From the NCBI RefSeq assembly GCF_058153355.1, contig NZ_CM177019.1: a stretch of 64,000 nucleotides of DNA. One strand, written 5' to 3'. Position 1 is the stretch's first letter. Each line of letters opens with the position of its first letter. Below, one piece after another: positions 6,368 through 51,211 of the stretch. A program made the position numbers and the translations under genes. The notes below the pieces were generated by a model. That model had not been told where the DNA came from and made no database searches. It saw only the letters and a program-made list of their open reading frames with translations.

Positions 6368-6561
6368 AAGACGGTATCCACACTTATTTCATGAGGTTGG
6401 TGTTGGGCGATTGACCCGCTGTCCTTCAGCCGTTAACGCTGAAATCCAACGGTTATTTACCGCCAACGATAATTACGAGGGCGTACTTATATATTTGCCG
6501 CTGCCTCTCAGTGCGGCTGTCGGGGGCTTCCCGATCGCTCTTCGGCACTTAAGCCGTTAAA

Positions 6562-8307: not shown

Positions 8308-8417
8308 AGGCCCCGATTTTTAGCAATTCATAAACGAAAATAAGCCGCGCATTCCTTTCGGAAGCACGGCCTTACAACTACAACTCGGTCTGATCGGAGA
8401 GCAACGCTCTCGGGGAA

Positions 8418-8672
<255 letters not shown>

Positions 8673-8870
8673 TCAACGCCAGCTTATTTCAAAATGGTGC
8701 GGAATTTTACTGCAATTGCTGCTGCTTTGTAAAGCACCGCGGCCTTTTTTGAAAGGGACTTTTATAAGGGTGAGGAGTATACACGAGGCTTTCTCCAGGG
8801 GCGAACAAAGTTTTACATCAACCCGCATTGGTCCTACACTGCGCGGTAATAAAGCGAGGTAAAACAAGTC

Positions 8871-9884
8871 ATGCGTGTACTGGGTATTGAAACTTCCTGC
8901 GATGAAACCGGCATCGCCATTTACGACGATGAAAAAGGTTTGTTAGCCAACCAATTGTATAGTCAGGTGAAATTGCACGCTGACTACGGCGGCGTCGTGC
9001 CTGAACTGGCCTCCCGCGATCACGTGCGTAAAACCGTACCGTTGATCCAGGAGGCGCTGAAAGAGTCCGGTTTAACGGCAAAAGACATTGACGCCGTGGC
9101 CTATACTGCAGGCCCTGGATTAGTCGGTGCGCTGTTGGTTGGCGCAACGGTCGGGCGTTCACTGGCGTTTGCCTGGGGCGTTCCGGCGATCCCTGTACAC
9201 CATATGGAAGGGCATCTGTTAGCGCCGATGCTGGAAGATAACCCACCGGAATTTCCGTTTGTCGCGTTGCTGGTTTCCGGCGGCCATACGCAGTTAATCA
9301 GCGTGACTGGCATTGGTCAGTACGAGCTGCTCGGAGAGTCTATCGATGATGCCGCCGGGGAAGCGTTTGATAAAACCGCGAAGCTGCTGGGGCTGGATTA
9401 TCCTGGCGGGCCATTACTGTCGAAAATGGCGGCTCAGGGTACTGCCGGGCGCTTTGTCTTCCCGCGCCCGATGACCGACCGTCCGGGGCTGGATTTCAGC
9501 TTTTCTGGTCTGAAAACCTTTGCGGCAAATACCATTCGTGATAACGGCACCGACGACCAGACGCGTGCTGATATCGCCCGCGCCTTTGAAGATGCGGTGG
9601 TCGATACGTTGATGATTAAGTGTAAGCGAGCGCTGGATCAGACGGGCTTTAAGCGACTGGTAATGGCAGGCGGCGTGAGTGCTAACCGCACGTTACGGGC
9701 GAAGCTGGCTGAAATGATGAAAAAACGCCGTGGCGAAGTGTTCTACGCGCGTCCGGAATTTTGTACTGATAACGGCGCGATGATCGCCTATGCCGGAATG
9801 GTGCGGTTTAAAGCAGGCGCGACGGCGGATCTCGGCGTTAGCGTGCGTCCGCGCTGGCCGCTGGCAGAGTTACCGGCCGCGTAA
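8871..9884 (+). CDS. tsaD: tRNA N6-threonylcarbamoyladenosine biosynthesis protein TsaD (Kae1/YgjD family)
   Basis: 337 aa, [20 protein letters not shown]...; divergent from rpsU. Confidence 0.93.
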
Positions 9885-9926
9885 AACTATTAGGTGCCGG
9901 AGAGTCACTTCCGGCACCGTCCTCAC

Positions 9927-11390
9927 TTAAAGCAACACCACGGGCATCCACAGTAAGCCGGTAATCACCAGCAACACGAGGAATATCAGCCCAAAAATTG
10001 CCCCCAGTCGCCAGTAATCCACCGTTGGCAGATAACCACTACCGTAGTAAATTGGACTGGGTCCGGTGGCGTATGGCGTAAGAATGCTCCCCAGACCAAT
10101 TGCCGCGCCAACCATCAGGCAGAACACGGGAAGCGGGATTTCCGGCATCGCCAGCGCGGCGGCAATCATCATCGGTGCGAGAGCGGAGGTATACGCCGTG
10201 GCGCTGGCAAAGAAGTAGCGTAGCAGATAAAACACCACAATCAACGCCACCATCACCATCGTTGGCGAATAACCGCTTAAGCTGCCTGCTAACAGTTTGC
10301 CAAACCAGCTAATAAAACCGGTGTTGTTGAGTCCGGTAGCGAGGGTGATAAGCGAGGCCAGCCAGAAGAAAACGTTCCACGCGGCTTTATTACTGACAAT
10401 GTCGTCCCAACTGATAATGCGCAGAAGCAGCATCAGCGCCACCACGCTGTAACCGACCATCGCGGCATCGATATAATCACCGCCGAAAATCCACAGCACC
10501 AGCGCGCCTACCATCAGCCCCAGCATCCGTTTTTCACGCGAACAGAGCGGGCCCATTGCCTGCAGTTCCGTCTCTGCCCAGCGTGGCACCTGATCACCAG
10601 ACTTCAGTACCGGCGGGTACAGCACGTAAGCCAGCCAGGGAACCAGCAGAACCAGTAAAATGCTGAGCGGCAACATGCCGAGAAACCAGTCGCCCCAACT
10701 CAGCGTGGCGTGAGATGCGCTTTTCATCAGGCCAATTAACAGCAAGTTAGGTGCCATCGCCGTCAGGAAAATGGCGCTGGTCACGCAGTCGGCAACAATC
10801 CCCATCCACATGATGTACGAGCCAATGCTGCGCGAACTGCTGTCGTTTGGTTGTGATTGATAGAGCGGTGGCAGGTTACGGATGATGGGATAGATAATCC
10901 CCGCACCGCGCGCCGAGTTGGACGGTGTTACAGGTGCCAGGATCAGCTCGGAGAACATCACCGCATAGCCGAGAAACAGCGTACGATGCCCCATCTTTTT
11001 CACCAGAATCAGCGCGATACGTCGCCCCAGCCCGGTTTTTTCATAGCCTGTGCCAAACATAAAGGCGGCGAAAATCAGCCAGATAACCGAATTAGAAAAA
11101 CCAGAAACCGCCCAGGAGAGGGATTTGGCGGTGAACTTAAAACCTGGCTGGGCGAGCTGCTCCGGGCTAAACAGCAGCCACGGCGAGAGAATGGCGATAA
11201 TGGAGATACCCACCATCGCCACCACGGCACCCGGCACGGGTTCGAGGATCAGTCCAACGATCACGCCAGTAAAAACGGCAAAGTAGAGCCAGGTATGACT
11301 CTCCAGCCCTGCGGGAACCGGAATTAGAGCAATAATGGCGATGACCGCCAGCGGCGCAAGGTATCGCCACCATTCAGTGGAAGGTTTCAT
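9927..11390 (-). CDS. ttdT: L-tartrate/succinate antiporter (DASS family)
   Basis: 487-aa polytopic membrane protein immediately downstream of ttdAB. Confidence 0.85.
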   Translation of the reverse strand: MKPSTEWWRYLAPLAVIAIIALIPVPAGLESHTWLYFAVFTGVIVGLILEPVPGAVVAMVGISIIAILSPWLLFSPEQLAQPGFKFTAKSLSWAVSGFSNSVIWLIFAAFMFGTGYEKTGLGRRIALILVKKMGHRTLFLGYAVMFSELILAPVTPSNSARGAGIIYPIIRNLPPLYQSQPNDSSSRSIGSYIMWMGIVADCVTSAIFLTAMAPNLLLIGLMKSASHATLSWGDWFLGMLPLSILLVLLVPWLAYVLYPPVLKSGDQVPRWAETELQAMGPLCSREKRMLGLMVGALVLWIFGGDYIDAAMVGYSVVALMLLLRIISWDDIVSNKAAWNVFFWLASLITLATGLNNTGFISWFGKLLAGSLSGYSPTMVMVALIVVFYLLRYFFASATAYTSALAPMMIAAALAMPEIPLPVFCLMVGAAIGLGSILTPYATGPSPIYYGSGYLPTVDYWRLGAIFGLIFLVLLVITGLLWMPVVLL

Positions 11391-11438
11391 CGTGTTATGC
11401 CTGCGAAAAAGGAGAGGGGGTGAGCCTCTCCGGGAGGG

Positions 11439-12044
11439 TTATTTGATGTAGTGGACGTGCTCGCAAATCTCTTCCACGATGGGATCGCGGCGTTCGGCGA
11501 ACAGCTTTTTGTTTTCGGCTATCAGGTTGTTGCCGTGGGTATCAATAGAGACAATCAGCGGACCGAACTCTTTGACCCGGCAGACCCACAGCGACTCCGG
11601 CATCCCGAGTTCTGTCCAGTGCACCTCTTCAATCTCTTCCACCTGGGTTGCCGCCAGTACTGCGCAGCCTGCCGGGAAAATCACATGCAGCGCCTTGAAT
11701 TTCTGGCAGCCTTCTTCGGTCAGCGGCCCCATTCCGCCTTTGCCGACCACCAGTTTCACGCCGGTCTGTTCGATAAATTCACGTTCAAAACTTTCCATAC
11801 GCATACTGGTTGTCGGGCCGACGGATACCATCTCCCATTTGTCGCCGTTTTTGCGCACGATGGGGCCAGCGTGGAAAATCGCTTTGCCGTTGAGATCGTA
11901 AGGGATCGGACGTTTGAGTTCGATCAAGCGACGGTGACAAACGTCACGGCAGGTTACCAGCGTACCGGTCAGGTAGATCACATCGCCGACGCGAATATCT
12001 TGCAGATCTTCAGCTTTGATCGGGGTTGTCAGGATCTTTTTCAT
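11439..12044 (-). CDS. ttdB: L(+)-tartrate dehydratase beta subunit
   Basis: 201 aa; fumarate hydratase class I C-terminal-like; start overlaps the ttdA stop. Confidence 0.88.
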
Positions 12045-12952
12045 AACGCGCTCCGGGTGTGAGACAGATTTTCAAAGGTGAGATCGGCATGAACCAGCAG
12101 TGTGCCGCGACGATGCGCCCAGCAGCCGGTAGAAACAGCAACGCCGATGGTTGACGGATGGCGGGCGGCAGATTCGATATGTACGCCCATCACTGAACTG
12201 TTGCCAGTCAGCCCCTGTGGACCAATCCCCAGACGGTTGAGTCCTTCTTCCAGGCGTAGTTCCAGCTCTGCCGCTTTTGGATTGGGATGGCGGCTGCCAA
12301 TTGGGCGCAAAATGGCTTTACGTGAGAGCACAGCGGCGGTTTCCACCGAGGTGGCGATGCCCACGCCTACCAGTACCGGTGGACAGGCGTTTACGGCGAG
12401 GGTGGAGATATTTTCGAAGACGAATTTCACTACCCCTTCGTAGCCTTCCGACGGCATTAACACTTTCGAACGACCAGGCAACGTGCAGCCGCCGCCTGCC
12501 ATGTAAACTTCGATTTCCGCATCGTCACCGTCGGGGACGATATCCCAGGTGACCCACGGTACGCCGCTGCCGGTATTTTTGCCGGTGTTCACTTCGTCAA
12601 AAATTTCTACCGCATTGTGACGCAGTGGCGCTTTGACGGTTGCCTCTTCCACGGCTTGCTTAAGAATGCTTTGCAGCTCGCCAAGCAGTGGGAAACGGGA
12701 ACCGACCTTAACAAAAAACATGATTTCGCCGGTGTCCTGACAGGCAGGACGATTCAGGTCGATTGCTTTTTGCATGTTGTCGAACATCGTGTGGTAGATG
12801 ATTTTCCCCATCGACGACGTTTCGGCATCCTTTAGCTGTTTTAGTTTGTCCACCACGTCATCGGGCATTCGGGTAGAAATCATGGCGGTAAAGTTAGCGA
12901 CAATCTCCGTCAACTTATTCACTGCCTGTTGCTTATTACTTTCGCTCATCAT
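12041..12952 (-). CDS. ttdA: L(+)-tartrate dehydratase alpha subunit (Fe-S hydro-lyase)
   Basis: 303 aa; fumarate hydratase class I N-terminal-like. Confidence 0.88.
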
Positions 12953-18109: not shown

Positions 18110-18348
18110 CAGGCTGTCGTTATTGTCTGGGAAAAGTGGAACGATAGTAGTGGCATCAGTGTCGCTACGCAAAGCATTCGCTATCAATCGGAATCCTCTG
18201 TGTCAGGTGCCACAGCTTCAATCTTTTACGCCCGTCAAATTGCCCGTTGCATGGCAATTTGGCGCAAAATACTATCTACTGACAAAAAAGATCGCATTAA
18301 GTTCGCCGTTCATCGTCACTTATGTGACATAACCGATAAGTAAAGGCC

Positions 18349-23994: not shown

Positions 23995-24412
23995 CCGGAA
24001 AGCGGTTCACAGATCTCGCTTCGAACCAGGCAGGCCTATTGACGCTGTTGTTTTTTCAACCTAAAGTAAAGGAACAAGGGTAAGGGAGGATTTCTCCCCC
24101 CTCTGAATTGGTTGTTAGTAAGTCGGGAAACTTAACAGTAACAACACAATCAGTATGATGACGAACTTCATCATAACCCTTTCCTTATACAAGGCCCCTT
24201 CCTCGGGAGGGGCTTTCCCGTTTCAGCCCCTTGCTGACTCCCCGATTGTTGATGAGCGCCAGACCCCGCGCAATGCTTTCTCTTATGCAGTTTTCTCTTC
24301 CCCGAGTCGGCTCGCAAAACGCTGTAACAACCTGATCATTTGTACTTTTTAGCGGAACACAGATATAAAAAATCCCCGACTTTTTGGGCCAGGGATGTTC
24401 ATGGTTGAAAAT

Positions 24413-26074
24413 TTATTCTATGTTTTCTGCTACGGGAGTTGTTGAGGTTAAGGGTGAAGTCAATGCCGCTAGCGAGCCGCCTGAAACACCAATTTCATTG
24501 AGCAAGGAGTCAATCAGCGGTGCCTGTGTGCGGTAAGAAAGCGCGGCTGATAACGCTTGTTCCGCCAGATTTCCTCCACCAACGCTACCTGATATTGCAT
24601 CCCCTGCGGTACCACCACGGTTCAGACCATCGACCTGAATAATCTTAATACCGTCGATAGACTTCATTGGTTCCACAGATTTCTCAATTACTGCAGGGAG
24701 CGCCTGCAACAATGCCAGTTTGAATTTAAGGCTGGTTTGCTCGTCAGAAAGTACGTTGATAGCATCGTTCAGCGCACGTTGCGCTTCTGCTTCCGCCAGG
24801 CCTTTTTTACGCGTAGCTTCGGCTAACTCAACGATCGCCGCCGCCTGCATCTCTGCGGCTTCTTTTTCTGCTTTCGCCCGCACGGTCAGTTCAACCGCTT
24901 TGGTTTCTGCATCCTGCGCGGCAGCGATTAGGGCAACTTGTTTAGCACGATCGGCTTCTGCGGTCTGGCGAGTGGTTTCTACGTTTTGCTGGGCGCTTAC
25001 CGCTTCTGCAAGTGCAAGGTTGGCACGCGCTTCCGCTTGTGACTGCTGTTCCGATTTGGCGGCAATAGCGATCGATTTCGTCTGGTTGGCGATTTCGGTG
25101 ACCTGCTGCTGTTCGATCTCTTTAATGCGAACTTCACGTTCAGCTTCAACTTTTCTGGAACGGACGGCCTGTTCGCGGTCGATTTCCGTTTCCTGAATCT
25201 GTCGTTCAGCCAGAATTCGCGTCTGCTCTGCTTCCCGACGACGCTCGGCCTCAAAAGCCGCAATTTTCGCATTCTGCTCAGCGGTACGGGTTTTAACCTG
25301 CTGCTCCTGCTCAAGCGTCATAAACGCTTCTTGCTGTTCAATCTCCAGCTTCCGCGAAAGCTCATCACGGTTTTTCTCACGCACCGCAACTTCTACATCC
25401 TGTTCAACTTCGTTACGTTCGCGACGACGGCGCTCCGTCTCCTGCGTCAGCTTGGTTAAACCTTCGGCGTCAAAGGCGTTGTTAGGATTGAAATGTTCTT
25501 TCGACGTCTGGTTAAAGTTGGTAAGTGAAACGCTTTCCAGTTCCAGGCCGTTTTTCGACAGATCTTCAGCAACGGTATTTTGTACGCCCTGCACGAAGTT
25601 CTCGCGGGTATCCTGTAACTCATGCATGGTCATTTGTGCAGCTGTTGCACGGAGGGCATCGACAAATTTATCTTCAACCAACATACGTAAGTCTTCAGGC
25701 GACAGGGTGCGTTGCCCCAGCGTCTGGGCGGCGGTGGCAATACCTTCCACTGACGGTTTTACCCGCACAAAGAAAGCGACAACGACATCGACGCGCATAC
25801 GATCTTTCGTAATCAGGCTATCAATGGTTGAGCGGCTGACTTCCAGCTTCAGAGTATTCATATTGATGGGGATTATTTCATGAAAGATCGGCATCACGAT
25901 TGCGCCACCGCTCATTACCACTTTTTGCCCACCTAAACCAGTACGAACAAAAGCTTGCTCTGCCGAAGCGCGACGATAGAGCCTGGCGAAAATAATTCCA
26001 ATAATAAACAGAATGCATACGGCAATAATTGCGGTAAACATCCAGGAGGGCACAGAATTAACAATATCATCCAT
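24413..26074 (-). CDS. yqiK: Flotillin-like SPFH/band-7 membrane protein
   Basis: 553 aa; N-terminal transmembrane helix, SPFH core, long charged coiled-coil stretch. Confidence 0.85.
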   Translation of the reverse strand: MDDIVNSVPSWMFTAIIAVCILFIIGIIFARLYRRASAEQAFVRTGLGGQKVVMSGGAIVMPIFHEIIPINMNTLKLEVSRSTIDSLITKDRMRVDVVVAFFVRVKPSVEGIATAAQTLGQRTLSPEDLRMLVEDKFVDALRATAAQMTMHELQDTRENFVQGVQNTVAEDLSKNGLELESVSLTNFNQTSKEHFNPNNAFDAEGLTKLTQETERRRRERNEVEQDVEVAVREKNRDELSRKLEIEQQEAFMTLEQEQQVKTRTAEQNAKIAAFEAERRREAEQTRILAERQIQETEIDREQAVRSRKVEAEREVRIKEIEQQQVTEIANQTKSIAIAAKSEQQSQAEARANLALAEAVSAQQNVETTRQTAEADRAKQVALIAAAQDAETKAVELTVRAKAEKEAAEMQAAAIVELAEATRKKGLAEAEAQRALNDAINVLSDEQTSLKFKLALLQALPAVIEKSVEPMKSIDGIKIIQVDGLNRGGTAGDAISGSVGGGNLAEQALSAALSYRTQAPLIDSLLNEIGVSGGSLAALTSPLTSTTPVAENIE

Positions 26075-26100
26075 TATTAAATTTCCTTTTGATTAATAAA

Positions 26101-26730
26101 TTACAGTATTTGGGGCCAGGGGTTTTTTTCCGCCAAATATCGCGTTGCAGAAAGTCGGCAAATAATTAATACTTTGTCTCCTTTAGTGAAAGTTTTTTCT
26201 TCTTCAGGTTCCAGTAGTAAATAATGTATTTGGCCAAATTGATCGGTGAGTTTTCCTTCACAGGGGTTACCTGAAGTGGCCTGATGTCCGGTAATTAATG
26301 CCATGCAGCCAATATAATCGTCTTCTGTAATAGCAGTGCTATGATCTCGTGGTAACCAGGGCGCAATTACTTTACCGGTATAATGCACTGCAATAATCGT
26401 TAGCAGTAAACTGACAGGAACCACAAACAGATTTGTGAGTGGTGATTGCCAGACCATGATGCAGACCTGCTGTAGCAGGATGCCAATAAGGCCAAAAAAA
26501 CCAGCATGTAAGCAGAGAACGACGAGAGCTGGCAATCTTCCAAAATTGAGATAATGAAGTGCCTGGCTAATATGACCTGTGGTTATGGAATCATAATGGT
26601 CAAGATGTGCATCAAGAGCACCGGAGAGCATGTGACCGCAGATAAGTGCAAAAATTTCTAAAAGGCCGATCAAAAGTACAAAAGAAATAGCGAAAAGATA
26701 AGGGGTGTTATAGTCAGCGAATAAAATCAT
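26101..26730 (-). CDS. yqiJ: NfeD-like inner-membrane protein, partner of the flotillin
   Basis: 209-aa polytopic membrane protein with C-terminal OB-fold-like segment; immediately upstream of yqiK on the same strand. Confidence 0.8.
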
Positions 26731-26999
26731 ATGTCACTCCAATGTCCATTTAGTGACGCAATATTTATTTTGCGATAATTTCCTTGCTTACATTTATCTT
26801 TGTTAATAATAACACATGTTAGAGATGTTCTGAAAGAGAAAGTCTTTTAATGTTGTTTTTTTATTTTTCACTAAAAAGTGTGATCGGGAACAATATATTT
26901 ACGCACGTTATGTTTAAAGGCACTACACTGATTGGGGAATACTGAAATCAGAAAAAGCATATGGCCTTAAAAGGTATGCGATAACCGGAGGATGTGCTT

Positions 27000-27200
27000 A
27001 TGGATCATAGTCTTAATTCTTTAAATAACTTCGATTTCCTGGCGCGTAGTTTTGCCAGAATGCACGCAGAAGGTCGCCCGGTCGATATTCTGGCCGTTAC
27101 TGGTAACATGGATGAAGAACATAGAACCTGGTTTTGCGCACGTTATGCCTGGTATTGCCAACAGATGATGCAAACCAGAGAACTGGAATTAGAACATTGA
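27000..27200 (+). CDS. glgS: Sigma-S-dependent surface-composition / glycogen-associated regulator GlgS
   Basis: 66 aa from [57 protein letters not shown]... Confidence 0.9.
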
Positions 27201-27206
27201 TATTAC

Positions 27207-27227
27207 GGGCCGTCTGGCCCGTTTTTG
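27207..27227 (+). terminator. Rho-independent terminator after glgS, in a 34-bp convergent gap before ubiK
   Basis: GGGCCGTCTGGCCC hairpin followed by GTTTTTG. Confidence 0.7.
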
Positions 27228-27234
27228 TGGTGCT

Positions 27235-27534
27235 TTATTCTGCTTTATCAACCGGCGGGATAGCCGGAGGAGATTGAAGTTCTGCTACCGGATTATTGCG
27301 CGCTTCCAGTTCGCTGATGCGTTGTTCCAGTAACGCCAGTTTTTCACGAGTCCGTAACAGGACTTGCGTCTGAACGTCGAATTCTTCGCGGCTTACCAGA
27401 TCGAGACGCGTCAACTGCGCTTGTAGGGTTTGGCGGATTTTTTTCTCCACATCTTCCCCGAACTCCCTGATTCCTTTAGGCATTGATTCGTGAACCTGGC
27501 GAGCGATTTGCTCAATTTTTTTCGGGTCAATCAT
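27235..27534 (-). CDS. ubiK: Ubiquinone biosynthesis accessory factor UbiK (BMFP family)
   Basis: About 99 aa from [55 protein letters not shown]... Confidence 0.85.
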
Positions 27535-27655
27535 TGTAGTTTCCCTGTACTGATAGGTGTTGAGTGCCATTGTAGTGCGATAAGGGTAAGTCATAAACCA
27601 GAATTATGTGAAGCTATGCGTTGCTGCCGCTAATCATTAGCGTTATAGTGAATCC

Positions 27656-27810
27656 GCTTATTCTCAGGGCGGGGCGAAATTCCCCACCGGCGGTAAATCA
27701 ACTCAGTTGAAAGCCCGCGAGCGCTTTGGGTGCGAACTCAAAGGACAGCAGATCCGGTGTAATTCCGGGGCCGACGGTTAGAGTCCGGATGGGAGAGAGT
27801 AACGATTCTG
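27656..27810 (+). ncRNA. FMN riboswitch (RFN element) in the ribB leader; expression platform continues towards 27900
   Basis: Conserved RFN core segments TTCTCAGGGCGGGGCGAAATTCCCCACCGGCGGTAAA ... AGCCCGCGAGCGC ... GATCCGGTGTAATTCCGGGGCCGACGGTTAGAGTCCGGATGGGAGAGAGTAACG directly upstream of ribB. Confidence 0.85.
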
Positions 27811-27907
27811 TCGGGCATGGACCCGCTCACGTTATTTTGGCTATATGCCGCCACTCCTAAGACTGCCCTGATTCTGGTAACCATAATTTTAGTGAGGTTT
27901 TTTTACC

Positions 27908-28561
27908 ATGAATCAGACGCTACTTTCCTCTTTTGGTACGCCTTTCGAACGTGTTGAAAATGCACTGGCTGCGCTGCGTGAAGGACGCGGTGTAATGGTG
28001 CTTGATGATGAAGACCGTGAAAACGAAGGCGATATGATCTTCCCGGCAGAAACCATGACCGTTGAGCAGATGGCGCTGACCATTCGCCACGGTAGCGGTA
28101 TTGTTTGCCTGTGCATTACTGAAGATCGCCGTAAACAACTCGATCTGCCAATGATGGTAGAAAATAACACCAGCGCCTATGGCACCGGTTTTACCGTGAC
28201 CATTGAAGCGGCTGAAGGTGTGACTACCGGTGTTTCTGCCGCTGACCGTATTACGACCGTTCGCGCAGCGATTGCCGATGGCGCAAAACCTTCTGATCTG
28301 AATCGTCCTGGCCACGTTTTCCCACTGCGCGCGCAGGCGGGTGGTGTGCTGACGCGTGGCGGCCATACTGAAGCGACTATTGATCTGATGACGCTGGCAG
28401 GCTTTAAACCGGCTGGTGTGCTGTGTGAGCTGACTAATGACGATGGCACGATGGCGCGTGCACCAGAGTGCATTGAGTTTGCCAATAAACACAATATGGC
28501 GCTCGTGACTATTGAAGACCTGGTGGCATACCGTCAGGCACATGAGCGTAAAGCTAGCTGA
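27908..28561 (+). CDS. ribB: 3,4-dihydroxy-2-butanone 4-phosphate synthase
   Basis: 217 aa; [42 protein letters not shown]... Confidence 0.95.
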
Positions 28562-28593
28562 AAACCGCTGCTTAATTTACCGCGTTAATCAAG

Positions 28594-28627
28594 AAACCGA
28601 AGCTATTACTGGCTTCGGTTTTTATTT
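28594..28627 (+). terminator. Rho-independent terminator of ribB
   Basis: AACCGAAGC-TATTACT-GGCTTCGGTT hairpin followed by TTTATTTT. Confidence 0.75.
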
Positions 28628-28799
28628 TGCTCTTGTTATGCAAGATGTTAATTCCTCTTCTCTTTCTATGAGAAAATTTCATTAATATCAGGCATTCTTT
28701 TCCATTATGATCAAAATCATATAATTGTTCCGTTATTATGCGACCATATGAATATATCCGAAAAAGGATATGTGAATTTTATGCGCTAAATGTTTAGTA

Positions 28800-28994
28800 T
28801 TGTTAAATATTAAGGGTAAAAGGATGTTTATCGCCTGGTACTGGATTGTATTGATTGCTCTGGTTGTGGTGGGTTATTTACTGCATTTGAAACGTTATTG
28901 TCGGGCGTTTCGTCAGGACAGAGACGCACTGCTTGAAGCGCGGAATAAATACTTAAACAGTACGAGAGAAGAGACAGCCGAGAAGGTAGAATAG
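28800..28994 (+). CDS. Candidate small single-pass membrane protein (64 aa; 56 aa if started at the internal Met at 28824)
   Basis: ORF with one hydrophobic helix (FIAWYWIVLIALVVVGYLL) followed by a basic/charged tail; preceded by AT-rich sequence and AAGGGTAAAAGGATG. No homology check was possible. Confidence 0.4.
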   Translation: MLNIKGKRMFIAWYWIVLIALVVVGYLLHLKRYCRAFRQDRDALLEARNKYLNSTREETAEKVE

Positions 28995-29051
28995 GGCTTT
29001 AGTGAAGCTGGCAGAAGTTGTCCATGCGCTGGACAACTTCTGATGTTGCTT

Positions 29052-29825
29052 TTAACCAATTCCCGCCGTTTGTAGTAGCACTAAACTGAATCCCATCACT
29101 GACATTCCACATAGCACGCCATAGCTGGGGTTATTATTGGGGTCAATCTCTTTAGCTAGCGGCATTAATTCATCAACCGAGAGCGCCACCATAATTCCTG
29201 CAACCGCCGCCATGATTGCCGCCATGACCACCGGAGAAATCATGCTACCGAGGATTAACCACGCCAGCACACCACCAAGAATTTCTGCCAGCCCAGAAAT
29301 GCCCGCCCACAAAATTGCGGTGCGTTTTGACCCCGTTGCCGCGTAAACCGGCCCCGCAACTGCCAGACCTTCAGGAATATTATGCAATGCAACAGCCAGA
29401 GCGATGCCAAATCCCAGCTCCAGGTTGCTGCTCGCCGTGACAAAGGTGGCAATCCCTTCCGGGAAGTTATGCAGACTGATGCCGAGAGTGAGCAGAATGG
29501 CTGTGCGCTTGATCGATTTTGGCAACGGCTGCACCGATGTTTGCATTAAATCCTGCGGATGCGCATGTGGCAACATGCGGTCCAGACCAAAATAGCCAAG
29601 CAGACCGAAGATAAACATTCCATAACCCAGCACAGGCGACATTCCTTCGGCGGCTAGTGCGGCAGGAAGCATTTCCATTAATGAGATGAGCAACATGATC
29701 CCCGCCGCAAATCCTAGCGAAAACGCCAGTAAGCGGTTCGAGGGTTTTTGCCCGAGAACGCCGAGAAACGCGCCAATAAACGTGGCTGCCCCCGCCAGTA
29801 TGGTCAGAATGAGAGGTACTGACAT
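29052..29825 (-). CDS. zupT: Zinc transporter ZupT (ZIP family)
   Basis: 257 aa from [26 protein letters not shown]... Confidence 0.92.
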
Positions 29826-29940
29826 CGACAACTCCTTATAAATCTTCACCTTCAGGCAGATCGTCAAAATAACTGATGATCATCATCATTGTTATCCGGG
29901 TTCTTACTCCGCCGAACAAGCGTATTGTGAGGATATCAAA

Positions 29941-30756
29941 ATGACACCTTTAGTTAAGGATATCATCATGTCTTCAACACGTATGCCAGCATTGTTTTTA
30001 GGTCACGGTAGTCCGATGAACGTGCTGGAAGATAATTTGTATACCCGCAGCTGGCAGAAGTTGGGGATGACATTGCCACGCCCGCAAGCGATTGTGGTGG
30101 TTTCGGCTCACTGGTTTACCCGTGGAACAGGAGTGACCGCGATGGAGACGCCGCCCACGATTCATGACTTTGGTGGCTTCCCGCAGGCGCTGTACGACAC
30201 CCATTATCCGGCTCCTGGATCACCGGCTTTGGCTCAGCGATTGGTTGAGCTGTTAGCGCCAGTGCCTGTCACACTGGATAAAGAAGCCTGGGGCTTTGAC
30301 CACGGTTCCTGGGGTGTGCTGATTAAGATGTATCCTGACGCCGATATCCCGATGGTGCAGTTGAGTATCGACAGTACCAAACCTGCCGCCTGGCACTTTG
30401 AGATGGGGCGTAAACTGGCGGCTCTGCGAGACGAAGGAATAATGTTGGTCGCCAGCGGTAACGTGGTGCATAACCTGCGTACGGTGAAGTGGCACGGTGA
30501 TAGTTCACCGTATCCTTGGGCGATGTCGTTTAATGAGTATGTGAAAGCGAATCTGACGTGGCAAGGGCCGGTAGAGCAGCATCCTCTGGTGAATTATCTC
30601 GACCATGAAGGTGGCGCGTTATCGAACCCAACGCCGGAACACTTTTTACCACTGCTGTATGTGTTAGGTGCATGGGACGGGCAGGAGCCAATTACCATTC
30701 CGGTCGATGGTATAGAAATGGGCAGTTTAAGTATGTTGTCGGTGCAGATAGGCTAA
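29941..30756 (+). CDS. ygiD: Extradiol ring-cleavage dioxygenase family protein (DODA-type)
   Basis: 271-aa ORF with the LFLGHGSPMN motif; divergent from zupT as in K-12. Start may be the internal Met at 29970. Confidence 0.85.
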   Translation: MTPLVKDIIMSSTRMPALFLGHGSPMNVLEDNLYTRSWQKLGMTLPRPQAIVVVSAHWFTRGTGVTAMETPPTIHDFGGFPQALYDTHYPAPGSPALAQRLVELLAPVPVTLDKEAWGFDHGSWGVLIKMYPDADIPMVQLSIDSTKPAAWHFEMGRKLAALRDEGIMLVASGNVVHNLRTVKWHGDSSPYPWAMSFNEYVKANLTWQGPVEQHPLVNYLDHEGGALSNPTPEHFLPLLYVLGAWDGQEPITIPVDGIEMGSLSMLSVQIG

Positions 30757-36975: not shown

Positions 36976-38871
<1,896 letters not shown>

Positions 38872-38900
38872 TAATCCTCCCGCCAGAAGAATAAAACATA

Positions 38901-38932
38901 GCCCGGTATACAAGTGTATACCGGGCTTTTTT
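38901..38932 (+). terminator. Rho-independent terminator of parE, at the left boundary of the accessory island
   Basis: GCCCGGTATAC-AAG-TGTATACCGGGC hairpin followed by TTTTTT; the stop codon of the convergent receptor gene lies 3 nt beyond the T-tract. Confidence 0.8.
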
Positions 38933-38934
38933 GA

Positions 38935-41076
38935 TCAAAATTCCATTTTCACCGTGAATTGCACTTCACGAGGATCGCCAATCTGGTTGCCCAGATTATT
39001 TGTGGCGATGGAAGAGGTGTAATACGTTTTATCAAACAGGTTTTTGACGTTTAATTGCAGTGTGACCGGATACTGCAATTTCATTTTGTATGCGGCGAAG
39101 GCATCGGCAACAAAATAGCCTGGCAGATAATAGTCAGCCCCATTGGTTGCCGAACGACGGCTTACACCATGTCCACCACCGCCAAACGTCAGTGTGTTAT
39201 TGCCTGGCATGTTATGAATATCATAGGTCAGGAATAGCGAACCGGTATGACGAGGAACATTCGGCAATGGTTTCCCTGCATAATCAGGATCCTCCAGAAC
39301 CTTAGCATCGGTATAGCCGTAGCTGGCAATGATATTAATGTTTTCAGTTAATGCTCCCGCAAGGTCGACTTCTACCCCTCTTGAACGAACACGGCCTGCC
39401 GTTTTGGCAATGGTTTCATCACCAACACTTTCGGTATACAACACATTACGTTTATGGATATCAAACAGCGCAATATCTGCGGTGATACCATCGAATAGCT
39501 CGAATTTTGCCCCGACTTCGTAAGCATTAGATGATTCTGGTGGCAGATCGCCAATGTAGCTGGCAATTGACGATTGCGGCATAAATGTTTGCGAATAATT
39601 GGCAAATAAGGATACCGATGGCGTCAGTTTGTAGACCAATCCCAGTTTGGGAGTCCATTGTTCATCGCGGCTGTCAGTATTGACATTAAAAGGACGGCCT
39701 TTACCCGCATACTGCGTGTAATACTGATAGCGGAGCCCGGCGACGGCAATCCAGTTATCGGTCAGATAGAGTGCGTCCTGTGCATACGCTGAGTAGCTCT
39801 CCTGTTTGATCGTCTGATCACTGTCCGACGCCGAAACCGTTGTGCATTTGCTGGTAATACCATAAACGGGGTTGTAGATATTGAAATCTTTAGCTTTTTT
39901 ACAGCGAATCATATCTGTGCGCAGAAGATCATAATATTCATATGACACCCCACCCAGAATCTCATTATAGAATCCAGCAACATCAACATTCCCTTGCAGA
40001 TCCGCACGAGTAGCATGCATACGCTGGGTAGATCCTTGAGTTGCATCAACACGCCGTGTCAGCGTTCCTGTCGTTGCATCATACGCGGTAACGCGAGCTT
40101 GATTATCGCTGTATTTATCCTGGCTGTAGCTGTAATCAAAGCGCGCTGTCCACTGGCTATTGAGATGATATTCTGCGTTGAGTTGCGCCAGATCGGACTG
40201 ACCATCTGTAATATTAAACGGTTCGTCAAAACGTATTTTTCGATCAACGTTTACGGGCTGTTTCGTCGTAAGGTCGAAAATCGTTCCACGATCGAACGGC
40301 GTTTTATAATCCCGATGAGAATAGAGCATGGTTACTGTTGCATTATCACCAAACCAGGTGAGTGATGGAGCAATAAATGTACTGCGCTCTTTACCGAAGT
40401 TTCGCCAGTAATCTTCATCTTGCACTTCCCCAATAAGGCGATACGCCAGCTGAGTGCCTTCAATGGGACCTGTGATATCCAATTGCCCAGTGCCTCCGCC
40501 AAAACTGGAGGAAGTGGCTGAGACAGTACCATGGAATGTTTTTTCCGGGCGCTTTGTCACGACGTTAATCAGTCCGCCAGGATCGAGAATGCCATACAGC
40601 GTGGAGGCCGGACCTTTTAGCACTTCCACACGCTCTGTGGCGGCGTTGAAACTGCGAGGAAGTACAGTTCGCAGGCCGTTGGTCATGATGGAGCCATCCC
40701 GGTTAGCACCAAACCCACGACGTACAAAAGCATCCTGAGTCCCGCCTAATGTATTGGTCTGTACCACGTTACTGACGTTATAAAGTGCCTCATCCAGCGT
40801 CGTCGCATTCTGATTTTCCAGAACTTGATCGCTAACCGTATTGACCACCTGCGGGATATCCAGCATCGGCATATCGGTTAATGTCGCCGTGGAGGTGCTC
40901 AGAGGTTGATAACCATCGGTCGCCTCAGTTGCGGTATTTGCATCCGCTGTAACAGTGATTGTTTCGCCATCTTTGGTCGTTACAGTGTCGGTTGCATGAA
41001 TCATCGGTGCTGCAAAGAGCAGTGAAAAGAGCGCTCGACCTTTGAGTCCTGAGAATGAAGGTGTGAACATAGCCAT
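38935..41076 (-). CDS. TonB-dependent outer-membrane receptor, siderophore type
   Basis: 713 aa; N-terminal signal peptide, TonB-box-like ETITVTA, plug-domain motifs, beta-barrel with C-terminal aromatic residue (...VKMEF). Confidence 0.85.
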   Translation of the reverse strand: MAMFTPSFSGLKGRALFSLLFAAPMIHATDTVTTKDGETITVTADANTATEATDGYQPLSTSTATLTDMPMLDIPQVVNTVSDQVLENQNATTLDEALYNVSNVVQTNTLGGTQDAFVRRGFGANRDGSIMTNGLRTVLPRSFNAATERVEVLKGPASTLYGILDPGGLINVVTKRPEKTFHGTVSATSSSFGGGTGQLDITGPIEGTQLAYRLIGEVQDEDYWRNFGKERSTFIAPSLTWFGDNATVTMLYSHRDYKTPFDRGTIFDLTTKQPVNVDRKIRFDEPFNITDGQSDLAQLNAEYHLNSQWTARFDYSYSQDKYSDNQARVTAYDATTGTLTRRVDATQGSTQRMHATRADLQGNVDVAGFYNEILGGVSYEYYDLLRTDMIRCKKAKDFNIYNPVYGITSKCTTVSASDSDQTIKQESYSAYAQDALYLTDNWIAVAGLRYQYYTQYAGKGRPFNVNTDSRDEQWTPKLGLVYKLTPSVSLFANYSQTFMPQSSIASYIGDLPPESSNAYEVGAKFELFDGITADIALFDIHKRNVLYTESVGDETIAKTAGRVRSRGVEVDLAGALTENINIIASYGYTDAKVLEDPDYAGKPLPNVPRHTGSLFLTYDIHNMPGNNTLTFGGGGHGVSRRSATNGADYYLPGYFVADAFAAYKMKLQYPVTLQLNVKNLFDKTYYTSSIATNNLGNQIGDPREVQFTVKMEF

Positions 41077-41176
41077 TTAGTCTGTTATCCCAAAAACTCG
41101 CGGATTGTCGCGAGTGAAAATTGTTTCTTATTGCTCACTAAGCACTATCCGTTTGTTATTTCGCCATCGGATATGT

Positions 41177-41195
41177 AATTGAGAATCATTCAATC
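41177..41195. promoter_or_regulatory. Candidate Fur box in the divergent control region of the island
   Basis: AATTGAGAATCATTCAATC; the core TGAGAATCATTCA matches the Fur consensus TGATAATCATTAT at 11 of 13 positions. Lies in a 373-bp AT-rich region between the receptor gene and the ABC operon. Confidence 0.45.
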
Positions 41196-41449
41196 ACGCG
41201 GTAATGTAGTAGTAAATGAGAAATAACAAAAAATTGCTACATGTGTTTTTATGAAAGGTTTATACAATTTAATTGTTTTTAATTTATTGATATTTAATGT
41301 TTTTATTTGTATGTGCAAAAATATTTTACCTGTTATTTACCTTGTTTTTGTGTGGCTTTTAACTGCTTGACTACTACATTTTGTGGCGTCAAACTCTCAA
41401 AGGAGAATGAGTTTTATTTTTGTTTGTCTTTGATTAAGTTGGCGTACAC

Positions 41450-42259
41450 GTGGCACATAACGCAAAAGGGCAGGGGCTGATCCTCGACAATGTTTCTGCC
41501 GGGTATCACAAGAAAATCATTGTTGATGGTGTTTCTTTCTCCGTTCCCACAGAAAAAATGACCGTTCTGGTTGGGGCAAACGGCTGTGGAAAGTCGACGC
41601 TGCTCAGCACCATTGCTCGTATCTTGCAACCCATGGGCGGTTCGATATTGCTTGATGGCAACGCGATTCACGAGCAACCAACGAAAGCGTTATCCCGTAG
41701 ACTTGGGATCTTGCCGCAGTCGCCATTATTGCCGGAGGGCTTAACCGTTTATGAACTGGTGTCGCGTGGGCGTTTTCCCTGGCAGAATTTCATTCGTCAA
41801 TGGAGCGATGCCGATGAGCTGGCGGTAGAAGAGGCCCTGAAATTAACGGGTACGCAGGAGTTTGCACATTTACCTGTTGAAAAACTCTCTGGTGGGCAGC
41901 GCCAGCGTTGCTGGATTGCGATGGTGTTGGCGCAAAAGACGCCTTATATCCTGCTGGATGAACCCACAACATGGCTTGATTTACGTTATCAGGTTGAAAT
42001 TCTTGAGTTATTACATGATTTAACGCGTCATCACGGGCGTACAGTCGTCGTGGTGTTGCATGATCTGAATTTTGCCGTCAATTATGGCGATACGTTGATA
42101 TTTTTACGCCAGGGGAAAGTGGTGCGTGTGTTGAATGAGGGGGAGCATTGCACGCCTGAGCTGGTAAAAGCGGTCTTTGACGTTGATGTTCACGCATCAA
42201 TAAATCCTCTGACGGGAAAGCCGTTCTTCATGCCGTTTCGTGGTGTAGAAAAAGTATGA
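41450..42259 (+). CDS. ABC transporter ATP-binding protein, FepC/FhuC/FecE-like
   Basis: 269 aa; Walker A GANGCGKST, signature LSGGQRQR, Walker B ILLDEPT, H-loop; apparent GTG start. Confidence 0.85.
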   Translation: MAHNAKGQGLILDNVSAGYHKKIIVDGVSFSVPTEKMTVLVGANGCGKSTLLSTIARILQPMGGSILLDGNAIHEQPTKALSRRLGILPQSPLLPEGLTVYELVSRGRFPWQNFIRQWSDADELAVEEALKLTGTQEFAHLPVEKLSGGQRQRCWIAMVLAQKTPYILLDEPTTWLDLRYQVEILELLHDLTRHHGRTVVVVLHDLNFAVNYGDTLIFLRQGKVVRVLNEGEHCTPELVKAVFDVDVHASINPLTGKPFFMPFRGVEKV

Positions 42260-43239
42260 TGCGCACAGGGCTGGTTACTGTAATTTTCCTCGCCTTACTG
42301 CTGGTGGGATGCGTGGTATATCCAGGGATTGGTGCCCGATTTATTGCACCACAAACGGTGTTGCAGGCATTTCTTCATTTTGATCCGCAAAACTTCGATC
42401 ACAACGTAATTGTAAGACTCCGTTTGCCGCGTTTAGCGGCAGCATTGCTTACCGGTGCTTCTCTTGGTGTTGCTGGTGCTTTGTTGCAGGCTGTCATTCG
42501 TAACCCATTGGGGGAGCCACATATTTTAGGCTTAAATGCCGGAGCCGCTCTTGCTGTCGTTGCCGCCAGTGCGCTTGGACTGGCCTTTCCGATTGGACGC
42601 CCACTGCTGGCATCTACGGGGGGCGCGTTATTGTTCCTGTTGATATTGCTGCTTTCCTCCGCAGGGCGTTCAGGGTTAACGCCAATGAAAGTTACTTTAT
42701 GCGGCGTGGCGCTATCGGCGTTCGTGTCCTCAATAACGGCTGCAATCCTGATTCTTGACGAACAAACACTGCTGGCGATGCGGACATGGCTAGCAGGTGA
42801 TTTAGCGGGGCAGGATTGGGCGACGCTGGGTACGTCCGCCTGGTTTTCTCTGGGGGGATTTGTGTTAGCCCTTTACCTTGCACCCTCCCTTAACATGTTG
42901 GCACTGGGCGATCGCATGGCGCAGGGGCTGGGCGTCTCTGTATTCCGCACGCGAACATTCACCCTGCTTGCGATCGCGTTGCTCTGTGGCGCAGCCGTAT
43001 CGATTGCTGGCCCCATTGGTTTTGTCGGCCTGCTAGTACCGCAGATTGTCCGGCGTCTGGTATCAGCGGATCTGTGCGTTCTGCTCCCTCTTTCAGCTTG
43101 TGTCGGCGCACTTTTGTTATTACTGGCAGATATTATTGCCCGTACGCTTTTCACGCCCCATGAGTTAGCGACCGGTGTCATGACGGCGTTAGTTGGTGCG
43201 CCTGTTTTTGTCATTATGGCGACGAGGATGTTCAAATGA
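42256..43239 (+). CDS. ABC transporter permease, FecCD family (iron-siderophore/B12 type)
   Basis: 327-aa polytopic membrane protein; start overlaps the ATPase stop (ATGA). Confidence 0.85.
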   Translation: MMRTGLVTVIFLALLLVGCVVYPGIGARFIAPQTVLQAFLHFDPQNFDHNVIVRLRLPRLAAALLTGASLGVAGALLQAVIRNPLGEPHILGLNAGAALAVVAASALGLAFPIGRPLLASTGGALLFLLILLLSSAGRSGLTPMKVTLCGVALSAFVSSITAAILILDEQTLLAMRTWLAGDLAGQDWATLGTSAWFSLGGFVLALYLAPSLNMLALGDRMAQGLGVSVFRTRTFTLLAIALLCGAAVSIAGPIGFVGLLVPQIVRRLVSADLCVLLPLSACVGALLLLLADIIARTLFTPHELATGVMTALVGAPVFVIMATRMFK

Positions 43240-44285
43240 GTCGGATAATGAACGTCGGGCTACGCCCACTACGTGTTGGTAAGTTTTCGACACTGGTACG
43301 CCCTAAAAATCTGCTGTTGCTTGGTGGGCTGTTCCTGCTTGCGGTTGGAATACTGATATTCGGTCTGATGCAGGGTTCTTTCTCTGTTCCGGCATCGGAA
43401 GTAGGACGAGCGTTGTTTGCTCCAGAAAACGTAAGCACAGACGCACGTTATATTGTGCAGGATATTCGCTTGCCGAGAGTCATCATGGCATTGCTATGCG
43501 GGGCCATGTTAGGTATGGCAGGGGCCGCAATGCAATCCATTGCACGTAACGGCCTTGCCGATCCTGGTTTAATCGGCGTCAAAGAAGGATGTAGCGTGGC
43601 TGTGCTGTGGCTGATTTTCCAGTTTCCAATGCTGGGAATGTTCTGGCGTCCAGTGGCTGGTCTTGCTGGCGGCCTGTTGGTGGCTTTAATCGTGATTTTT
43701 TGTGCGCGCGATATTTCCCGCCCGCGATTTGTTCTGATTGGTATTGGTGTTTCCTGGTTTTTCGCCGCCGGTATCGGTGTATTTATGACCACTGCAGATG
43801 TTCGAGATGTACAAACTGCATTGATGTGGTTATCGGGAAGCCTGCATGCAGCTAACTGGATGTTAGTCGGTATTTCAGCCTGTTGGATGTTGCCAGCCGC
43901 TCTTTTATTGCTGTTCACCGCCAGGAAGGCGGATATCGCTCTGCTTGGTCATCAGGTGGCAACCGGGTTAGGCGTGAATAGTTCTCGCCTGGCGTTGTTA
44001 CGTGTCGCCGCACCCATAATCCTGACAGCCGTCTGCGTTTCGTGTGTTGGTAACATAGGTTTTGTCGGATTGATAGCACCCCATATATCACGTTTTATTC
44101 TACGTGGCGGGCAGACGACATTACTGCTGGGGAGCGCGGTATCGGGGGCGTTGTTAGTTATTCTGGCGGATAGCATTGGTCGTTTGGCTTTTTTGCCTTT
44201 GCAACTGCCTGCCGGAATCATTATCTCACTGATTGGTGGACCATTTTTTTTGCTACTGCTCTGGCAGCGCAGGAACAGTTTTTAA
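43236..44285 (+). CDS. ABC transporter permease, FecCD family, second subunit
   Basis: 349-aa polytopic membrane protein; start overlaps the upstream stop (ATGA). Confidence 0.85.
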   Translation: MSRIMNVGLRPLRVGKFSTLVRPKNLLLLGGLFLLAVGILIFGLMQGSFSVPASEVGRALFAPENVSTDARYIVQDIRLPRVIMALLCGAMLGMAGAAMQSIARNGLADPGLIGVKEGCSVAVLWLIFQFPMLGMFWRPVAGLAGGLLVALIVIFCARDISRPRFVLIGIGVSWFFAAGIGVFMTTADVRDVQTALMWLSGSLHAANWMLVGISACWMLPAALLLLFTARKADIALLGHQVATGLGVNSSRLALLRVAAPIILTAVCVSCVGNIGFVGLIAPHISRFILRGGQTTLLLGSAVSGALLVILADSIGRLAFLPLQLPAGIIISLIGGPFFLLLLWQRRNSF

Positions 44286-44295
44286 CGGGAGTTAT

Positions 44296-45243
44296 ATGCG
44301 TTTATTTTTTTCTCTGCTGATACTGTTGTCATTTTTTTCCCGTGCAACAGAACCTGTTCAGGTATTTACTGATGATTTAGGGCGCAAAGTCACTGTTCCT
44401 GCTCATCCAAAGAGAATTGTCTCTTTACACGATCTTGATATCACTATTCCTCTGATTGAGCTCGGTGTACCTCCTGTCGCCAGCCACGGGCGAACTCGGC
44501 CTGACGGTAGCCATTTCATTCGATCTGGCGCGTTATTGACAGGTGTCGACTTTGATAATTCATCGATCGCCTTTATTGGTACCGCTGATATTGATATTGA
44601 AGCGATTGTGGCGGCAAAGCCTGACCTGATCATCACAGAACCGACCCGTAATACGCCCATTGAACAACTTGAAAAAATTGCGCCCACGGTGAGCATTGAT
44701 CATCTCAAAGGGGGCGCGCCAGAAATCTATCGCAAGCTGGCAGAACTTACAGGAACGCAGTCGCAGCTGGCGATACTTGAACGCCGCTATCAGGCACAAA
44801 TCAATGCGCTGAAGGCGACGCTGGACAGCCAAAAAATAACGGTATCGGTGATTCAGGCAAACCAGGGAAAAATTAATGTGATGCATAGCTATCATTCGCT
44901 GGGGCGGGTATTACGCGATGCTGGTTTTCGTTTTCCGCCGCTGATTGAGAGCATTCCTGAAGGTGGGCGAATGGATGTGAGCGCGGAGCGTTTACCTGAA
45001 CTGGATGCCGATTTTGTTTTTGCAACCTGGCGCGGTGACACCGGTGGTAAACCTCAGGATGAGCTGGCAGCAATGGAAAAAGTCATGCCGGGATGGTGTC
45101 AGTTTCTGACTGCCTGTCGTTCCGGGCGTTATGTGCTGATTTCTCGTGAAGAGGCAATTTCTAACTCCTTTGCATCTCTGGGGCTGATGGCTGCGCAGAT
45201 ACAATCACAAATTGCAGGGCGACCTCTACCGGAGGCTAAATGA
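44296..45243 (+). CDS. Periplasmic substrate-binding protein, class III (siderophore/heme/B12-type)
   Basis: 315 aa from MRLFFSLLILLSFFSRATEP (signal peptide); typical size and architecture; GGGA ribosome-binding site upstream of the ATG at 44296. Confidence 0.8.
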   Translation: MRLFFSLLILLSFFSRATEPVQVFTDDLGRKVTVPAHPKRIVSLHDLDITIPLIELGVPPVASHGRTRPDGSHFIRSGALLTGVDFDNSSIAFIGTADIDIEAIVAAKPDLIITEPTRNTPIEQLEKIAPTVSIDHLKGGAPEIYRKLAELTGTQSQLAILERRYQAQINALKATLDSQKITVSVIQANQGKINVMHSYHSLGRVLRDAGFRFPPLIESIPEGGRMDVSAERLPELDADFVFATWRGDTGGKPQDELAAMEKVMPGWCQFLTACRSGRYVLISREEAISNSFASLGLMAAQIQSQIAGRPLPEAK

Positions 45244-46127
45244 TCCAGAAAGATAAAGCGCGGGTTGATATTTTTGGTGAGCGTTTTCGCACTCGCGCGA
45301 GTCAGTTAACGCCTGGGTTAAGAGCTGTCGCCAGCTACATTAATGAGCATCGTGAAGTGGTACTCGAGCAAACGGCGATGGAAATTGCGGCCACGTTGAA
45401 CACTTCCGATGCCACAGTTATCAGGGCTATACAGGCCCTGGGGTTTGCCGGGCTGCGTGATCTGAAACGCACTCTGGAACAGTGGCTTGGTCCAGCCCTT
45501 AGTTCCAGCGAAAAGATGTCTACGACGGTGAGTAACTTGACGAGCGATGTTAACACCGCAATCGACTTTGTTCTTGAAGGGCATTTGTATACCTGTAATG
45601 TCCTGTCAGAGCCTGAAAACCGCCACGCGCTTGCGCAAGCTGTAGCGTTGTTGGTGCAGGCACGGCAAGTCGCAATTTTTGGCATTGGCGCTTCGGGTAT
45701 TCTGGCGGACTATACCGCACGACTATTCAACCGCATAGGTTTGCCTGCCACGGCACTAAACCGTACGGGTATTGGCCTTGCCGAGCAACTGATCGCGCTT
45801 CAACGTGGCGATGTTCTGATCATGATGGCGCAAAAATCTGCGCACCGGGAAGGGGTGACGACGCTTCGTGAGGCGAGGCGGCTGGGGATCCCTGTTATTT
45901 TGCTGACAAACGCGCTGGATTCACGTTTTAGCAAAGACGCCAGTATCGTGATTCATGTTCCGCGCGGGGATGAAAAAGGGAAAACGCCGCTACATGGTAC
46001 GGTATTGTTGTGTCTGGAAATGATTGTCTGGTCGGTAGCTTCCGCAGTGCCGCAGCGTGCGGTTAAAACCATTAAGCGAATTAACGATTTCCATCGAGGA
46101 CTGAAAACGGGAAGAAAGAATGGCTAA
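45240..46127 (+). CDS. RpiR-family transcriptional regulator (N-terminal HTH_6 + C-terminal SIS sugar-phosphate-binding domain)
   Basis: 295 aa; HTH region (...QTAMEIAATLNTSDATVIRAIQALGFAGLRDLK) followed by a SIS-like fold (VAIFGIGASGILADYTARLFNRIG...); start overlaps the stop of the binding-protein gene. Confidence 0.75.
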   Translation: MIQKDKARVDIFGERFRTRASQLTPGLRAVASYINEHREVVLEQTAMEIAATLNTSDATVIRAIQALGFAGLRDLKRTLEQWLGPALSSSEKMSTTVSNLTSDVNTAIDFVLEGHLYTCNVLSEPENRHALAQAVALLVQARQVAIFGIGASGILADYTARLFNRIGLPATALNRTGIGLAEQLIALQRGDVLIMMAQKSAHREGVTTLREARRLGIPVILLTNALDSRFSKDASIVIHVPRGDEKGKTPLHGTVLLCLEMIVWSVASAVPQRAVKTIKRINDFHRGLKTGRKNG

Positions 46128-46171
46128 TCTGGGCTGAGACCGGTAGCAGCACCGGCCTCTTTTCAGGAATG

Positions 46172-50874: not shown

Positions 50875-51211
50875 TGAAGAATCTTTACCGGAGTGTGAGC
50901 CAAATCACTCGCTATCAGTTTAAGTTAACGATGCCACAGGCGTATTGTTGTCCGCTCAGACTCTGACGGCACAGGATTTTGTCCTTCCACACAGAAACCG
51001 CCATTGGCGGTTTTCCGCTGCATAATCCGCAGGATTATGTCTACAGCAAAGAGTTGTATATCAAGGCACATTGATGCCTTTATCGCCGTCGGAGCACGTC
51101 CGGCGGCGCTATTCACGCTGATCTCCTGTGACTCGACGCGGCAGATAATGTAGTATCTCCGGCAATATTGCCCCTTTGAAGGCTGGCGAATAAGTTGAGG
51201 AATCAGAATTA

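Follow-up and report, generated by a model that had tools for sequence, protein, structure and literature searches.

Two related fimbrial operons of Escherichia coli are the closest described systems to the locus reported here. The Yqi/ExPEC adhesin I (EA/I) cluster spans 4,975 bp and was reported to be missing from both K-12 and O157:H7 (Antao et al. 2009, PMC2771359). The distribution of Yqi and Yqi-like fimbriae was subsequently found to be clade-specific, with 'Yqi' (phylogroup B2) and 'Yqi-like' (phylogroups A, B1, D and E) described as related, mutually exclusive types encoded at different loci (Wurpel et al. 2013, PMC3559732). A full-text literature search on yqiC in combination with glgS and fimbriae returned promoter-catalogue papers only. 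We examined a 64-kb stretch of contig NZ_CM177019.1 (assembly GCF_058153355.1; hereafter the window, 64,000 nucleotides in full), in which the site of the K-12-type operon is unoccupied.

In the window, glgS and ubiK (yqiC) are convergent, lying tail to tail. The glgS gene (27000–27200, + strand) encodes the surface composition regulator, a protein of 66 aa that matched Pfam PF08971 over its full length (residues 1–66, E 1e-45, 153.9 bits, cut-off 32.2). The ubiK gene (27235–27534, − strand) encodes a protein of 99 aa, of which residues 1–78 matched the BMFP domain (PF04380, E 1.6e-27, 96.2 bits, cut-off 37.2). The stop codons of the two genes are separated by 34 bp (27201–27234), as a sequence-only reading of this DNA had proposed, and this spacer is the unoccupied site of the K-12-type ygiL-yqiGHI operon. 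The same reading had placed a fimbrial cluster with a yqiG split by IS2 between these genes in K-12, and NC_000913 bears this out: its order is ubiK, ygiL, yqiG::IS2I, yqiH, yqiI, glgS, and glgS does not adjoin ubiK, their stop codons being 6,608 bp apart. Using tblastn (E ≤ 1e-5) with eight fimbrial proteins representing both Yqi types, we found no homologue of a subunit, usher, chaperone or adhesin in the 64-kb window, and in particular no match to YgiL, the usher, YqiH or YqiI of K-12 or O121. The suspected absence of the fimbrial operon thus holds for the glgS-ubiK interval and for the window as a whole. Neither remnants of ygiL or yqiI nor K-12-type diagnostic bases (defined below) were present at 27158–27406. 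An Rfam search over 24000–30000 gave no match in the spacer, the only hits being a Sib RNA (24039–24189) and an FMN riboswitch (27656–27804). Chance is of no concern here, because the statement is one of gene order and was checked directly.

The spacer contains a single hairpin, ACGGGCC-gtct-GGCCCGT (27205–27222), with a 7-bp stem including six G-C pairs and a 4-nt loop, followed directly on the + strand by TTTTT (27223–27227). Folding gave −13.8 kcal/mol (z −2.7) for the + strand and −14.3 kcal/mol (z −4.4) for the − strand, a stability exceeding that of almost all shuffled sequences. The terminator scan predicted an intrinsic (Rho-independent) terminator at 27205–27227 in the glgS direction only. 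On the − strand, what follows the stem (UAAUAUCAAU) is a poor U-tract, and the scan made no call, so that the U-tract on both strands that would mark a bidirectional intrinsic terminator is lacking; the hairpin is the sole structure on offer downstream of ubiK. Judged from sequence, the hairpin is a canonical predicted terminator for glgS only, and the notion of a shared terminator is only half demonstrated. The sequence-only reading was right that the convergent genes meet at one hairpin, which it had placed at 27207–27227, a range that starts about 2 bp late and includes the T-run.

To place the window among sequenced strains, we counted the two arrangements in 5,426 complete E. coli genomes. 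A contiguous glgS-ubiK junction (at least 80% of window positions 26700–27900 covered in one piece) was present in 2,066, including O157:H7, O55:H7 and B2 strains such as APEC O1:K1:H7, with 97.6–99.8% identity among the matches listed. DNA of the K-12-type yqiG-yqiH-yqiI genes was present in 3,362. With a sum of 5,428, the two counts show the states to be essentially complementary; from this near-perfect complementarity, a genome with the contiguous junction is predicted to lack the operon altogether, and the strain studied here probably carries no copy elsewhere in its own genome. Absence of the operon at this site is therefore a common and already described strain difference, known in substance (Wurpel et al. 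2013, PMC3559732).

The K-12-type operon itself occurs as two deep alleles, one at least 99% identical to K-12 (1,574 records) and the other about 94.5% identical (1,711 records), which we compared at positions 5415–11697 of locus L001 and 7319–12263 of locus L084. The ubiK-ygiL intergenic region is only 90.8% identical between the two alleles; the glgS and ubiK ends of the block are near-identical. Damage to the operon is frequent; examples are the IS2 within yqiG of K-12, the frameshifted yqiH of O121, and IS1, IS3, IS4 or IS5 in the usher gene of other strains.

A second fimbrial site, likewise unoccupied in the window, lies 1.3 kb from the glgS-ubiK gap, between the ribB stop codon and yqiD (28562–28823). 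In the B2 strain APEC E16002 this position holds a chaperone-usher operon of four genes (L082, 13916–18890), whose length of 4,975 bp is exactly the published one (PMC2771359), and operons of this B2 type between ribB and yqiD were found in 994 genomes. In the window, ribB (27908–28561) is followed directly by yqiD and zupT, and the four B2 Yqi/EA-I proteins gave no tblastn match (E ≤ 1e-5) anywhere in the 64 kb. Proteins of the B2 and K-12 types are only 37–59% identical to each other. Related operons occupy the ribB-side position in Klebsiella spallanzanii, Leclercia, several Enterobacter, Lelliottia, Pseudocitrobacter and Citrobacter FP75, and the ushers from these other genera are up to 71–72% identical to the B2 type. 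Both sites are empty, as in the window, in 1,114 genomes (about 20% of complete E. coli; at least 80% of window positions 26100–29900 covered in one piece), O157:H7 among them. The three classes (3,362, 994 and 1,114) sum to 5,470 against 5,426 genomes, a small overcount that may come from partial or plasmid-borne matches, and the counts are compatible with the published mutual exclusivity of Yqi and Yqi-like fimbriae (PMC3559732). We also noted a 31-bp stretch, 87% identical, shared by the region upstream of K-12 ygiL (L001, 5267–5297) and that upstream of the first gene of the B2 operon (L082, 18998–19028), which, going by the similarity, could be a regulatory element common to both fimbrial types.

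The ancestral arrangement was sought by scanning the window UbiK against one genome per species, which yielded at least 80 outgroup loci. Among the loci listed, glgS converges on ubiK in all 17 that bear glgS, with a spacer of 28–73 bp. These belong to a cryptic Escherichia clade, E. albertii, Salmonella enterica subsp. diarizonae and arizonae, seven Citrobacter, Superficieibacter, two Pseudocitrobacter, two Raoultella and K. spallanzanii. The window spacer is collinear with the spacers of E. albertii and the cryptic clade, and the CGGGCC/GGCCCG stem is conserved in nearly all of the glgS-bearing outgroup loci listed, including those of E. albertii, Salmonella, Citrobacter, Raoultella and Klebsiella. 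None of the outgroup loci listed (at least 80) has a K-12-type operon between glgS and ubiK. Since outgroups with glgS share both the junction and the hairpin, the compact junction is old and the K-12 arrangement is derived; contiguity of glgS and ubiK is the ancestral state, and it was K-12 that gained the operon, so that the absence in the window is not to be taken for a loss. The cryptic-clade locus (L002, NZ_JAATUR010000001.1) is labelled 'Escherichia coli strain SCPM-O-B-8794'; despite this label, its identity to all E. coli compared (84–88% in yqiJ/yqiK, 92% in zupT) is that of a separate species of Escherichia or a cryptic clade, and it was used as an outgroup. E. fergusonii, E. marmotae and E. 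ruysiae lie outside the DNA-level comparison.

Alignment with K-12 revealed that more than the spacer differs. Homology detected by blastn ends at 27229, just past the terminator, and resumes at 27304, 69 bp into ubiK. The 74 bp between these points (27230–27303), comprising the distal part of the spacer and the last 22 codons and stop codon of ubiK, have no blastn-alignable K-12 counterpart, and K-12 has 6,639 bp, the fimbrial operon included, in their place. We then compared the flanks among the window, strain H1, O157:H7, a B2 strain, K-12, an O121:H19 strain of phylogroup B1, the cryptic clade and E. albertii, taking as diagnostic any site that separates the four empty-site strains, without exception, from the two that carry yqi. 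There were 24 such sites, 12 at 27158–27226 and 12 at 27319–27406, and none in the next ~700 bp on the glgS side (to 26437) or 1.3 kb on the ubiK side (to 28700). The window has the empty-type base at all 24 and so bears no flank signature of the yqi haplotype; of the 24, both outgroups agree with the empty type at 15 and with the yqi type at two. The segment replaced by the diverged block in yqi-carrying strains therefore extends over 27158–27406, starting inside glgS and stopping inside ubiK, and is ancestral throughout in the window.

Sequence identities agree with these boundaries. Across glgS with the terminator and ubiK codons 1–77 (the first 231 bp), K-12 and O121 are 98.3–99.6% identical to each other but only 91–94% identical to every empty-site strain, and the empty-site strains are 97.4–100% identical among themselves; the ends of the diverged block are short (~70 and ~90 bp), which makes such distance estimates noisy. 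In yqiJ, ribB and zupT the usual phylogeny is restored, with O157 97.9–98.8% identical to K-12 and O121. The window glgS is 100% identical to that of H1/H71 and 98% to that of O157, but only 95.5% to that of K-12, with the differences from K-12 concentrated in codons 53–66, and represents the ancestral-type allele. Most of the differences are synonymous (11 of 11 differing codons in ubiK, seven of eight in glgS), and the island has 40.1% GC against 46–51% in its flanks. Such dense synonymous divergence in short stretches beside a low-GC insert suggests that an orthologous segment was recombined in.

The replacement reaches the protein sequence of UbiK. Residues 1–77 are identical in the window and K-12, after which the tails differ. 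The window UbiK carries an ancestral-type tail of 22 residues with the motif PAIPPVD, common to Salmonella, Citrobacter, Enterobacter, Kosakonia and E. fergusonii; the K-12 protein, of 96 aa, ends in NRSTEIKKQPDPETLPPTL, without this motif. A protein search with K-12 UbiK returned the K-12-type tail almost solely from E. coli and Shigella entries. A related tail, ENRSTVTVVKDDQETLPPTL, is native to a more distant enterobacterial lineage represented by two short metagenome contigs (L088, 1–2233, and L089; Logan contigs SRR33454298 and ERR3179213). The K-12 tail is thus diverged orthologous sequence, since its relative is native in a distant lineage, and for the same reason random read-through into foreign DNA was rejected as its source. 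Modelling places the coiled coil of UbiK at residues 53–80 (PMC9499169). The swapped part is mostly flexible tail, lying just outside the BMFP domain and, for the most part, past the predicted coiled coil, and on these grounds a functional effect of the swap is unlikely, as far as domain and coiled-coil models can tell.

We also searched for the donor of the block. Against the same outgroup loci (at least 80), the closest sequences to the K-12 ubiK 3′ half and glgS 3′ end, among the matches listed, were the empty-type alleles of E. coli itself (87–89%), and the K-12 ubiK-ygiL intergenic region had no match outside yqi-carrying E. coli, save for the 31 bp upstream of the B2 operon. The metagenomic lineage with the related tail (UbiK relative P0022) was considered as a donor and rejected: its DNA is 77–83% identical to Escherichia, and its ubiK and glgS neighbour each other across a 191-bp spacer, without an operon. 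This lineage further differs in having a GlgS of 70 aa and, within the 191-bp spacer, a hairpin of its own and an inverted repeat.

The best explanation of these observations, and one we hold to be highly probable, is that the window has kept the original version of a junction that was never interrupted, and that ygiL-yqiGHI was acquired later by part of the E. coli population. Homologous recombination would most likely have brought the operon in as a single low-GC block, framed by the 3′ end of glgS and the 3′ half of ubiK, from a diverged, unsampled relative in which it already lay between these two genes. With the crossovers falling inside glgS and inside ubiK, recipients would also have received a foreign UbiK C-terminal tail. 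In the window, the hairpin between the two genes would efficiently terminate glgS transcription and is the sole hairpin downstream of ubiK. At ribB-yqiD, too, the window lineage is without an operon, here the related B2-type Yqi/EA-I one. An assembly artefact, in which a repeat-mediated collapse removed the operon, hardly deserves consideration: no repeats flank the site, and 2,066 complete genomes share the junction, as do many other species. Nearly as implausible is in-situ deletion of the operon in an ancestor resembling K-12, whether by excision or through illegitimate recombination between the operon ends. Fimbrial operons do decay often, as seen from the IS2 in K-12 yqiG, the O121 yqiH frameshift and the IS elements in many ushers, but a deletion would leave K-12-type block ends, where the window is ancestral at 24 of 24 diagnostic sites; nor could it regenerate the ancestral ubiK 3′ end and UbiK tail, and the window spacer, as noted, is collinear with its counterparts in E. 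albertii and the cryptic clade.

A stronger competitor, though still an improbable one, is allelic replacement, by which a lineage that once had the K-12-type operon would have recombined with an empty-site strain and so restored the ancestral haplotype without a scar. Recombination is frequent in E. coli, the neighbourhood of glgS-ubiK is mosaic in the window, with the best-matching genome changing from segment to segment, and the outcome would be indistinguishable from never having had the operon. Against this, the window shows no trace of a former occupant, and such a history is unparsimonious when the empty state is common to all outgroups, B2, phylogroup E and the nearest relatives H1/H71. 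Within the preferred account, of an ancestral junction and a later imported operon, we lean towards a more specific proposition: that the unusual haplotype is that of K-12 and not that of the window, and that roughly 62% of the E. coli sequenced so far, among them the K-12 strains used to characterise UbiK, have a chimeric ubiK, whose last ~19 codons would have been imported together with the glgS 3′ end and the operon in one homologous-recombination event from an unsampled Escherichia-related donor, giving two C-terminal forms of UbiK perfectly linked to presence or absence of the operon.

Several further observations concern the window beyond this locus. No complete E. coli genome is close to it along its whole length; the best identities are 97.0% for 1–25000 and 99.0%, with another strain, for 39001–64000, and values of 99.3–99.8% are reached only around glgS-ubiK. 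As yqiJ/yqiK reach just 92–94% identity to strains of A, B1, B2 and E, these comparisons suggest a divergent or mosaic lineage with few representatives among the complete genomes. The close relative H1 is missing a 7.3-kb segment that lies between parE and ygiN in the window (38868–46171) and that the sequence-only reading had counted as a gained iron island; the counterpart of this segment in strain 2020CK-00188 includes a TonB-dependent siderophore receptor, a FecCD-type ABC transporter and a MurR/RpiR regulator, and window positions 39001–64000 are covered to at least 80% in 1,865 genomes. Between ygiV and parC (50950–51003), about 1.57 kb with ygiS is missing relative to 2020CK-00188, which fits the missing mqsRA-ygiS noted in that reading; the ygiV-parC interval of H1/H71 has only a 69-bp pseudogene fragment. 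At 18348/18349, between ygiM and ygiF, H1/H71 have an ISEc41 (IS200/IS605 tnpA and an InsQ/TnpB gene) that the window lacks. The Sib antitoxin RNA (Rfam RF00113, 144.7 bits) at 24039–24189 lies in a region (24039–24396) where the alignments to K-12 and to H1 overlap, indicating a tandem sibD/sibE-ibs repeat between yqiK and hldE.

For biology at large these findings carry little weight, as variable carriage of Yqi-type operons is documented and the empty site is ancestral and common. They do imply that, at glgS-ubiK, comparisons with K-12 should take K-12 as the derived genome, and that absence of yqi needs to be checked at both of the two alternative fimbrial sites in the neighbourhood. Residues 78–96 of K-12 UbiK are non-ancestral enterobacterial sequence, which is relevant to annotation pipelines and to structure-function work on UbiK. 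What is modestly new is the non-ancestral C-terminus of K-12 UbiK and the emptiness of the window at both fimbrial sites, together with the probable nature of the K-12 haplotype as a recombined-in block with its ends inside glgS and ubiK.

Compared with known systems, the spacer resembles enterobacterial intrinsic terminators between convergent genes in having one GC-rich hairpin between the convergent stop codons, with a stem kept across genera; it is asymmetric, with a proper T-run on the glgS side only, and on the ubiK side an A-run before the stem and a weak U-tract after it. The Yqi/EA-I operon of B2 strains (PMC2771359) is a related four-gene chaperone-usher operon of the same neighbourhood, which is absent from the window and whose insertion site differs from that of the K-12 type. 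The nearest described counterpart is the cryptic 'Yqi-like' chaperone-usher operon ygiL-yqiG-yqiH-yqiI of K-12 (PMC3559732), which occupies the same position between the same flanking genes, glgS and ubiK. Unlike that locus, the window contains no part of the operon and is ancestral in the 3′ ends of glgS and ubiK as well as in the spacer between them.
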